DNA from: Escherichia coli | GTDB taxonomy: Bacteria; Pseudomonadota; Gammaproteobacteria; Enterobacterales; Enterobacteriaceae | Assembly (NCBI RefSeq): GCF_003334765.1 | Contig: NZ_QOWT01000003.1 | Direction: 5' to 3' (one strand) | DNA length: 64,000 nt | Shown here: positions 1,159 through 2,443 of the stretch, one piece after another | How positions within the stretch are numbered: position 1 is the first letter of the stretch | How the letters are laid out: each line of letters opens with the position of its first letter | Made by a program: the position numbers and the translations under genes | The notes under the pieces: model-generated | Told to the model about the DNA's origin: nothing | The model's input: only the letters and a program-made list of their open reading frames with translations | Databases searched by the model: none

Positions 1159-1641
1159 TTACCTTGCACAATGCATTATTGCTCTGTTACCAATGCTCAA
1201 AATAAAAGCATGCTTACCTTGCTTTAGTATATTATAGCTTACACTTTTTTCTGGAAAGACATAAAAATCAGGAATAAGTTGTGCAAGTCTATCATCATCA
1301 ACTTGATCCATAATCTCAAACTTATTAACTTTCTTTGATGTTAAATGGGCTGTGTCATAGTTTTCAATCCATGTGTATTCAATATTTCGCCGTATTGATT
1401 TACTTTCTCTGTTACCTTGTTGCCAGGTTCCACTCAACGCAACAGTTCCTGTTTTATTTTTTTTGTTATACATAAAGTCGATGGTAAGATTTGCTCGTCC
1501 CTGGTCATTAAAAATTACCCAATTTGCAGTGCATGTTTCGTTATATATCATTTTTTCTGCAGTGTAAGAATAGACAGTGAAGAGAATAAACCCACTGATA
1601 AAAACTAAAATAAATAATAAGTTTTTTTTATAATCAATCAC
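1159..1641 (-). CDS. yqeJ: single-pass membrane protein YqeJ (ToxS/FidL-like partner of YqeI)
   Basis: ORF track 1159..1653; GTG at 1641 preceded by GAGG gives 160 aa; N-terminal hydrophobic helix LLFILVFISGFILFTV then a soluble domain; overlaps the yqeI stop by 8 nt. Confidence 0.6.
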   Translation of the reverse strand: MIDYKKNLLFILVFISGFILFTVYSYTAEKMIYNETCTANWVIFNDQGRANLTIDFMYNKKNKTGTVALSGTWQQGNRESKSIRRNIEYTWIENYDTAHLTSKKVNKFEIMDQVDDDRLAQLIPDFYVFPEKSVSYNILKQGKHAFILSIGNRAIMHCAR

Positions 1642-2443
1642 GATTAACCTCACGGTAAGACAGGGTTAAACAGTTTGCCACTTCATGTTGGTTATAGTTT
1701 TTATTGCATGCCATAACAATCATCCCCGGTGAGGATTTTGCAAGAGGGAAGTATAACCACGGATGTTTTTTACAGTTAATCCCCGAATCCAGTATCCGTG
1801 TTTTATATTTATCGAACTCTTTCAACCCATCAATTGTATCTTCTGTTACATTAAAATGGCAGCCATTAATTTCCGCAACAGTCTTGTAATCCTTGAAAAA
1901 TGGCTTCGGTTGATTATTATTCCATAGCCAATATGCAGAATATGCGCCTATGACAAATGCGCTCAACATAATTAGATGACTTTTTATATGTTTGAGGATT
2001 TTGTTATTGAAATTCTTTGCGCCACCAATGCTCTCTTTGTATCCCGCATTAACTTTTATGGCAGGTGGGGCATTGTGTGTATGTGCGTCTGTTGACGAGT
2101 TTATTACATGATTTTGTATGTTAATGTCATTATGGATCTTGAATCCTCTTCTCGGCACGGTTGCAATTAGCGAGTGGGTAGTATCACCAACAGCGCGAAA
2201 TCCGCGTCTGATAATGGATATGTTCTGATATAACGTGTTAGTAGGCACACGCATACCTTCTTCTTCCCAGACTCTGGTGAAAAAATCTTGTTGTGCAACC
2301 ACATCAGGAAAAGCTTCAAGTAGAAGTGATAAACATCGACTGGCTGGCGTTGTCAGAACGACGTTAAGATCGGCGTTATGTACCGATATTAATTTTCGGT
2401 GCTCAGGCCAGAACTCGATATTATCGTTAATAATCCAGTACAT
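1634..2443 (-). CDS. yqeI: ToxR/CadC/MarT-like membrane-anchored transcriptional regulator YqeI
   Basis: 269 aa ORF; N-terminal OmpR/PhoB-type winged-helix-like region, central hydrophobic helix LIMLSAFVIGAYSAYWLW, C-terminal periplasmic-type domain; length matches K-12 YqeI. Confidence 0.8.
   Translation of the reverse strand: MYWIINDNIEFWPEHRKLISVHNADLNVVLTTPASRCLSLLLEAFPDVVAQQDFFTRVWEEEGMRVPTNTLYQNISIIRRGFRAVGDTTHSLIATVPRRGFKIHNDINIQNHVINSSTDAHTHNAPPAIKVNAGYKESIGGAKNFNNKILKHIKSHLIMLSAFVIGAYSAYWLWNNNQPKPFFKDYKTVAEINGCHFNVTEDTIDGLKEFDKYKTRILDSGINCKKHPWLYFPLAKSSPGMIVMACNKNYNQHEVANCLTLSYREVNRD

Follow-up and report, generated by a model that had tools for sequence, protein, structure and literature searches.

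The window analysed here is a stretch of 64,000 nucleotides (nt) from Escherichia coli (RefSeq assembly GCF_003334765.1, contig NZ_QOWT01000003.1), and the element under study is a pair of genes encoded on its minus strand, yqeI and yqeJ, whose coordinates are collected in Table 1 together with those of their features and neighbours. Neither is a chance open reading frame (ORF), both being annotated and conserved genes. An original prediction, made without database searches, had described them as a membrane regulator pair of the ToxR/ToxS or MarT/FidL type, overlapping by 8 nt and probably co-translated. The analysis presented below indicates that yqeI-yqeJ is, with high probability, a two-gene co-component transmembrane regulator of the ToxR/ToxS-VtrA/VtrC superfamily, and the E. 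coli counterpart of the MarT/FidL pair of Salmonella pathogenicity island 3 (SPI-3).

Table 1. Coordinates in the window of yqeI, yqeJ, their predicted domains and sequence features, and the neighbouring genes (aa, amino acids).
Feature	Positions	Strand	Description and basis
yqeI coding sequence	1634..2443	minus	269 aa plus TGA stop; ORF list and RefSeq annotation in other strains; very probable membrane-tethered ToxR/MarT-type regulator
yqeJ coding sequence	1159..1641	minus	160 aa plus stop, GTG start; ORF list and RefSeq; very probable ToxS/VtrC/FidL-type partner
YqeI aa 28-102, winged helix-turn-helix (OmpR/PhoB-type, Trans_reg_C)	2138..2362	minus	Cytoplasmic DNA-binding domain; Pfam PF00486
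YqeI aa ~155-175, predicted single transmembrane segment (SHLIMLSAFVIGAYSAYWLWN)	1919..1981	minus	Hydropathy only
YqeI aa 176-269, predicted periplasmic beta2-alpha-beta3 domain	1637..1918	minus	94 aa; AlphaFold2 model and Foldseek
YqeJ aa ~8-27, predicted N-terminal transmembrane anchor	1561..1620	minus	Kyte-Doolittle 19-mer value 2.26; preceded by basic K5 and K6
YqeJ aa 35-159, predicted periplasmic eight-stranded lipocalin-like barrel	1165..1539	minus	Near-invariant C37/C158 pair
GAGG Shine-Dalgarno of yqeJ	1648..1651	minus	6-nt spacing to GTG; within the last yqeI codons; read from the junction sequence
Poly-A tract 1, A8	1622..1629	minus	yqeJ codons 5-7 (KKN); length polymorphic among strains
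Poly-A tract 2, A8	1457..1464	minus	yqeJ codons ~60-62 (KKN); A9 in strain R2
yqeK	573-1010	plus	141-145 aa; convergent to yqeJ
Small annotated ORF	1046-1126	plus	26 aa; convergent to yqeJ
yqeH	2777-3469	minus	EcpR-like / LuxR-type regulator; NCBIfam EcpR E 2e-20, under the curated cutoff

The reading frame of yqeI opens with an ATG at 2443 and ends with a TGA at 1636-1634. For yqeJ, the mechanical ORF list places the start at a GTG at 1653, which would give a product of 164 aa, but this start lacks a Shine-Dalgarno sequence and was rejected, the N-termini of homologues matching a GTG at 1641 instead. Taking into account that a GAGG motif lies 6 nt from GTG 1641, that the N-termini of homologues in E. 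albertii, E. marmotae and other Escherichia fall at this codon, and that it is the start annotated in RefSeq, GTG 1641 is the better one. With it, the start of yqeJ overlaps the end of yqeI by 8 nt (1634-1641), and both the predicted positions of the two minus-strand ORFs and their overlap are confirmed. In the published description of the system (Kinch et al., PMC9214523), YqeI/YqeJ is counted among the few non-overlapping cassettes, whereas the sequence, the Shine-Dalgarno motif, the homologue N-termini and RefSeq give an 8-nt overlap. The notion of a co-translated pair finds support in the overlapping or abutting genes kept in relatives, although it is better worded as a pair that is probably translationally coupled. 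A consensus scan for promoters and terminators returned promoter-like sites that were no commoner than in shuffled sequence.

YqeI carries the winged helix-turn-helix (wHTH) domain that had been predicted at its N-terminus. The Pfam family Trans_reg_C (PF00486) matches residues 28-102 with an E-value of 4.1e-9, and among the sequences of solved structures the top match is the DNA-binding domain of V. cholerae ToxR (8b4b; E 1.6e-7, aa 2-103), with PhoB-family proteins and CadC ranking behind it, so that the domain is nearest in sequence to ToxR. NCBIfam gave only sub-threshold matches, to the wHTH domains of CadC, VanR and PhoB, and the assignment of YqeI as CadC (NF007540) was rejected, since it scored 19.6 bits, where the cutoff is 400, over a region (aa 48-130) covering the wHTH only.

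The predicted architecture of a single transmembrane helix followed by a periplasmic C-terminal domain is likewise borne out. YqeI has a sole hydrophobic segment, at aa ~155-175, with a Kyte-Doolittle 19-mer maximum of 1.35. This is the lowest value of 89 full-length homologues, in which the median at the same position is 2.21 and 84/89 exceed 1.6; judged from these profiles, the case for a membrane span is good in the family as a whole and somewhat less strong in the E. coli protein. As a side observation, the E. coli protein might be inserted less efficiently in the membrane, or its insertion might rely on YqeJ. Beyond this segment, four cysteines (C195, C224, C246 and C258) are invariant in 90/90 aligned sequences, which is the pattern expected for an oxidising, periplasmic location. 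An AlphaFold2 model of this domain, built from 39 sequences, has a beta2-alpha-beta3 arrangement (mean predicted local distance difference test, pLDDT, 81.8), and its top Foldseek matches in the Protein Data Bank (PDB) are the periplasmic domain of ToxR (6utc; E 0.011, probability 0.99), ToxR 8alo_A and VtrA 5kew_E.

In YqeJ, the hydrophobic segment (aa 8-26, Kyte-Doolittle value 2.26) falls within a helix that spans residues 3-30 of the AlphaFold2 model, and ~130 residues follow it. Thus, the proposed layout of an N-terminal anchor and a periplasmic domain stands, although this domain is slightly smaller than the ~140 aa that had been claimed. The model, obtained from a family alignment of 99 sequences, reaches a mean pLDDT of 93.3 and contains eight beta strands and one short helix in addition to this N-terminal helix. 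When it was used as a Foldseek query, three ToxS chains occupied ranks 1-3 and VtrC came close behind, in agreement with the ToxS-like arrangement originally proposed. The same ToxR-ToxS heterodimer entry, 8alo, was matched by both proteins, YqeI hitting chain A and YqeJ chain B.

The family models gave a different outcome for YqeJ, since the expected match to the ToxS or FidL families was not obtained. With a Pfam-A library older than PF27292, YqeJ alone had zero matches, and the 99-member family retrieved no meaningful family and no ToxS match; NCBIfam returned nothing. Membership in FidL_like (PF15941) was rejected, as YqeJ does not match it and just 2/99 family members reach E <= 0.001, which makes it a sister family. 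The precomputed Pfam family of YqeJ is PF27292 (YqeJ_C). Judging by the models, the link of the periplasmic domains to ToxR/ToxS and VtrA/VtrC is a superfamily relation at the level of fold and not one of family membership.

The relationship to MarT/FidL is closer, and the prediction of a pair of this type holds over the full length of both proteins. YqeI shares 40% identity with MarT of Salmonella enterica (P0135, 285 aa) across 267 aa (E 1e-72), and YqeJ shares 42% identity with FidL (154 aa) across 153 aa (E 5e-42), its two cysteines being aligned to those of FidL; in all, the six periplasmic cysteines of YqeI/YqeJ align with those of MarT/FidL. FidL and YqeJ also share the precomputed Pfam assignment PF27292 YqeJ_C. 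In the Salmonella locus the order of genes is mgtC-mgtB, then further on the regulator, the 154-aa gene and a 968-aa autotransporter, and therefore this is the SPI-3 arrangement marT-fidL-misL. Moreover, yqeH shares 40% identity with an EcpR_N-type gene located beside misL in SPI-3 (L003, 10409-11026), so three genes are common to both islands. A yqeH-like gene also flanks a distant yqeIJ-like pair (L011). From these gene orders, the conserved unit may comprise three genes (a yqeH-type gene plus yqeIJ) instead of two.

When 1.84 billion cluster representatives were searched exhaustively by HMMER with a YqeJ profile, no more than 126 proteins were recovered at E <= 1e-3, almost all of them of 150-170 aa. 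Among the full-length members of the family (n=94), the N-terminal hydrophobic segment is present in 88/94 and the cysteine pair in 81/94, while residues C37, G65, G71, R85, F126 and C158 of YqeJ are kept in at least 90% of the 99 sequences. Gene pairing was surveyed in six loci, one of which is truncated by the end of its contig; in the five with an intact upstream gene (5/5), a Trans_reg_C gene lies directly upstream of the YqeJ-type gene. These regulators are 257-286 aa long and contain a transmembrane segment together with at least four distal cysteines, and the junctions with their partners consist of a 4-nt overlap in three loci, an 8-nt overlap in one and, in Salmonella, a 10-nt gap.

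Several YqeJ-type loci adjoin chaperone-usher fimbrial operons or a yqeH-like regulator, which recalls the control of misL by MarT and of fimbriae by PsaE/PsaF. In contigs from Citrobacter and others, yqeIJ-type cassettes were observed by chaperone-usher genes (L005, 1-4884 and 11926-12846; L012, 1408-3931; L013, 386-925). Because of this adjacency, the gene neighbourhoods suggest that adhesin operons could be the usual local targets of such cassettes; within the window, no chaperone-usher fimbrial operon adjoins the E. coli pair. Another contig (L014, 1-1063 and 2171-3498) carries two co-component cassettes nearly back to back, one with a FidL_like partner and the other with a YqeJ_C partner, and therefore distinct partner paralogues are able to coexist.

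The pair yqeIJ is found in 3731/5426 complete E. coli genomes (~69%) with 95-100% identity, always in the chromosome and, bar rare duplicates, in single copy. Its integrity was evaluated in 30 records spaced evenly down the ranked matches, 28 of them full length, with inspection of five records of odd length. An annotated frameshift appears in 2/28 full-length matches, one in yqeJ and one in yqeI. In strain R2, isolated from chicken, the annotated frameshift of yqeJ coincides with nine adenines (A9) in poly-A tract 2; given that yqeK of this strain is also frameshifted, this could be a homopolymer error of long-read sequencing. In strain EC9952 it is yqeI that is annotated as frameshifted (L010, 635-1445). 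YqeJ is shortened in strain HS, an IS1 element lies just downstream of yqeJ in strain EC5 with both genes intact (L007, 152-849), and the O157:H7 allele with A9 is annotated with both genes intact. Truncated YqeJ clusters are present in the protein collection, and one protein record (P0044) was seen to be a yqeJ-yqeK fusion arising from a deletion. The ratio of nonsynonymous to synonymous substitution (dN/dS, Nei-Gojobori), calculated between the window and a strain diverging by 3.4%, is 0.24 for yqeI and 0.08 for yqeJ, from small counts of 29 and 15 substitutions, respectively. The decay of the genes through frameshifts across strains, which would have spoken against a functional pair, is thus not what was found, since most strains keep both genes intact and dN/dS stays below 0.25; frameshifted or truncated alleles are a minority state, and these comparisons indicate that purifying selection continues.

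The first poly-A tract of yqeJ varies in length among strains: the window has eight adenines (A8), O157:H7 has A9 and strain HS has A7. When 60/3636 genomes were sampled systematically, 52 had A8, six A9 (O157:H7-type), one A7 and one a loss of 2 nt. For the A9 allele, the start annotated in RefSeq is a TTG located 4 nt further downstream, in the +1 frame, leading to a product of 159 aa with the N-terminus LIIKKN... and, in O157:H7, to a 4-nt overlap with yqeI. For the A7 allele of HS, a TAA occurs just upstream in frame and the annotated product of 150 aa is devoid of the basic N-terminus. The A8/A9 difference has been published as a marker of K-12 versus O157, and the second tract is mentioned in the same work (PMC11186120). 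Across the sample, the pattern of tract 1 looks lineage-fixed and not rapidly switching. Partner genes of other genera have similar A-runs of lysine codons at their start, and tract 1 is probably a by-product of positive-inside residues encoded by AAA in AT-rich DNA.

Concerning the neighbourhood, the pair is bordered on one side by yqeK and the small ORF, both on the plus strand (573-1126), and on the other by yqeH, yqeG and yqeF. The PADLOC defence models had no match for YqeI, YqeJ or YqeK. The content of G+C is 32-40% over positions 1-4000, in comparison with >50% beyond ~5500, as is typical of islands that were acquired horizontally and are bound by H-NS. The fragment yqeG-ygeL has been employed as a model H-NS-silenced fragment in a 2025 study (PMC12460168), and the K-12 pair has been considered a remnant of ETT2 (PMC9214523). 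Taking into account that the region is AT-rich and serves as such a model, yqeIJ is probably silenced by H-NS in K-12, that is, intact but rarely expressed, and silent in laboratory conditions.

As for the phenotypes, deletion of yqeI in strain AE81 of avian pathogenic E. coli (APEC) led to 587 differentially expressed transcripts, including 26 flagellar genes whose expression was lowered, and the mutant showed fewer flagella and reduced serum survival, adhesion and organ colonisation, effects that were complemented (Xue 2020, PMC7552227). The earlier statement that the signal and the targets of the pair are not established in E. coli still holds (PMC9214523, PMC7552227).

A mechanism can be proposed for the co-component regulator by analogy with VtrA/VtrC and ToxR/ToxS. 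Thus, translational coupling would lead to roughly equal amounts of YqeI and YqeJ, inserted side by side in the inner membrane, where the last strand of the YqeI periplasmic sheet would complete the open barrel of YqeJ, giving rise to an obligate heterodimer to which periplasmic disulfides would lend stability. A hydrophobic ligand from the host, bound in the barrel, or another envelope cue, might then promote a higher-order assembly or shield YqeI from proteolysis, and this assembly or protection would allow the cytoplasmic wHTH domains to bind promoter DNA at the membrane.

Several points weigh against the assignment of YqeI/YqeJ to this class of regulators. Neither periplasmic domain finds ToxR, ToxS, VtrA or VtrC in sequence and profile searches against all PDB chains, the profile searches extending as far as E <= 10, and the fold matches of the YqeI domain are weak (E 0.011-0.1, TM ~0.5), though their ranking is specific. 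The membrane segment of the E. coli YqeI is the least hydrophobic of 89, and its insertion is therefore less certain than in relatives. A K-12 ΔyqeI mutant grows normally on glucose or mannitol, with no more than a modest change in mtlA expression, and the effects of the APEC deletion may be indirect or, since the genes overlap, polar on yqeJ. To these must be added the minority of strains that carry frameshifted alleles.

Some of the same facts could be accommodated by other explanations. It might be considered that the two genes are unrelated neighbours, YqeI being a CadC-like one-component membrane regulator and YqeJ an unrelated small membrane protein, as could be read from the weak NCBIfam CadC match of the former and from the lack of matches of the latter in the Pfam-A library used. 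Nevertheless, the CadC score is far from its cutoff and limited to the wHTH, the YqeJ fold specifically matches ToxS/VtrC, co-purification of their periplasmic domains has been reported (PMC9214523), and no relative whose upstream gene is intact lacks the pairing, in which the stop and start codons usually overlap. This conserved synteny effectively refutes the idea, whose probability we regard as negligible. A less remote, if rather doubtful, explanation is that the K-12-type pair survives intact but without a function as a vestige of the degraded ETT2 island, silenced by H-NS and deprived of its original targets. The AT-rich composition of the region (32-40% GC) and its use as a model H-NS-silenced fragment (PMC12460168), the description of the K-12 pair as an ETT2 remnant by Kinch et al. 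(PMC9214523), the normal growth of the K-12 mutant, the frameshifted or truncated alleles of some strains and the ~31% of complete genomes without the pair are all compatible with it, whereas the dN/dS values of 0.24 and 0.08 point to continuing constraint, both ORFs are intact in most sampled carriers and the ΔyqeI phenotype of the APEC strain was complemented. In any case, a relic of this kind concerns the state of expression and not the molecular nature of the pair, and would fit alongside a co-component regulator.

A further explanation, also tentative and comparable in its chances to that of a relic, accepts the pairing but reduces YqeJ to a stabiliser or chaperone, which would guard YqeI from periplasmic proteolysis or aid its disulfide folding without any signal ligand, as has been proposed for the role of ToxS toward ToxR; any sensing would then occur via redox-sensitive cysteines of YqeI. 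The four invariant periplasmic cysteines of YqeI, the conserved pair of YqeJ and the fact that no ligand is known for this protein would agree with such a role, but the lipocalin-like barrel of VtrC binds ligand, bile salts act through ToxS, and the likeness of the YqeJ fold runs over the whole barrel. More speculative, and in our opinion improbable, is a reading in which the A-tract of yqeJ with its two closely spaced starts in different frames, GTG with A8 and TTG with A9, would act as a translational switch. If this were true, the switch would alter or remove the membrane anchor of YqeJ independently of YqeI, and in lineages such as O157:H7 (fixed A9) or HS (A7) the regulator would work with a changed YqeJ or with none. 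In a second speculative reading, YqeJ would bind a gut lipid or bile ligand and connect it to the control of flagella and adhesion in commensal E. coli.

The assignment of YqeI/YqeJ as a ToxRS-like pair is correct, but it has been in print since 2022. Kinch, Cong, Jaishankar and Orth (PNAS 2022, PMC9214523) included YqeI (ECK2845) and the lipocalin YqeJ (ECK2846) of E. coli K-12 among the candidate co-component systems, regarded them as orthologous to MarT/FidL, noted the conserved disulfides and reported that the co-expressed periplasmic domains co-purify as a dimeric complex. YqeI with its partner YqeJ has also been tabulated among transmembrane transcription regulators (PMC10269533), and YqeIJ is cited as a coTTR (PMC13042144). 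The present analysis reproduces the published assignment independently and with different tools, and adds to it three small details, namely the overlap of 8 nt with the Shine-Dalgarno motif of yqeJ located inside yqeI, the unusual weakness of the YqeI membrane segment and the distribution of the poly-A alleles. Taking into account that the co-component family controls virulence in Vibrio, Salmonella, Yersinia and enterohaemorrhagic E. coli, yqeIJ is relevant as a tractable model of it, laboratory E. coli K-12 having no other co-component sensor of the ToxRS/VtrAC type; this point was also printed in 2022.

When the pair is compared with known systems, one likeness within E. coli itself is with CadC, another membrane-tethered ToxR-like wHTH regulator, to which the wHTH of YqeI matches weakly. 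CadC, however, works as a one-component sensor; its periplasmic domain is large and senses pH, and its co-sensor is LysP instead of a lipocalin-like partner.

In ToxR/ToxS of Vibrio (8alo, 8u2f, 6utc, 8b4b), ToxR is composed, like YqeI, of a wHTH, a transmembrane helix and a small periplasmic alpha/beta domain with a disulfide, which in YqeI is predicted, and ToxS has, like the YqeJ model, a short tail, a transmembrane helix and an eight-stranded barrel. In contrast, the C-terminal helix of ToxR/VtrA described by Kinch et al. (PMC9214523) is missing from the YqeI model, and the pair of cysteines joining the N- and C-terminal strands of YqeJ is, according to the same authors, found only in the FidL-like group and not in ToxS/VtrC. 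The signal of ToxRS is bile, and bile salts act through ToxS, the lipocalin-like barrel being the ligand-binding element of VtrC (PMC9214523, PMC13042144). VtrA/VtrC of V. parahaemolyticus, a bile-salt receptor (5kev/5kew), has 7-8% sequence identity to the E. coli pair, and VtrA is without periplasmic disulfides (PMC9214523), unlike the four-cysteine domain of YqeI.

Related or paralogous co-component cassettes are GrvA/FidL in E. coli O157:H7, PsaE/PsaF in Yersinia and BprP/BprQ in Burkholderia, which control adhesion, fimbriae or type III secretion (PMC9214523); they occupy other loci and have other targets than yqeIJ. Lastly, Salmonella MarT/FidL offers full-length homologues of both proteins together with a yqeH-like EcpR_N regulator gene close by, although the relative order of this gene differs between SPI-3 and E. 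coli, and the gene calls used leave a 10-nt gap between marT and fidL, whereas yqeI and yqeJ overlap. In the window, the E. coli pair has no autotransporter alongside, and yqeK, considered as a possible remnant of a MisL-type target, was rejected, YqeK having no similarity to MisL; marT-fidL, on the contrary, adjoins its known target misL, which encodes an autotransporter adhesin.

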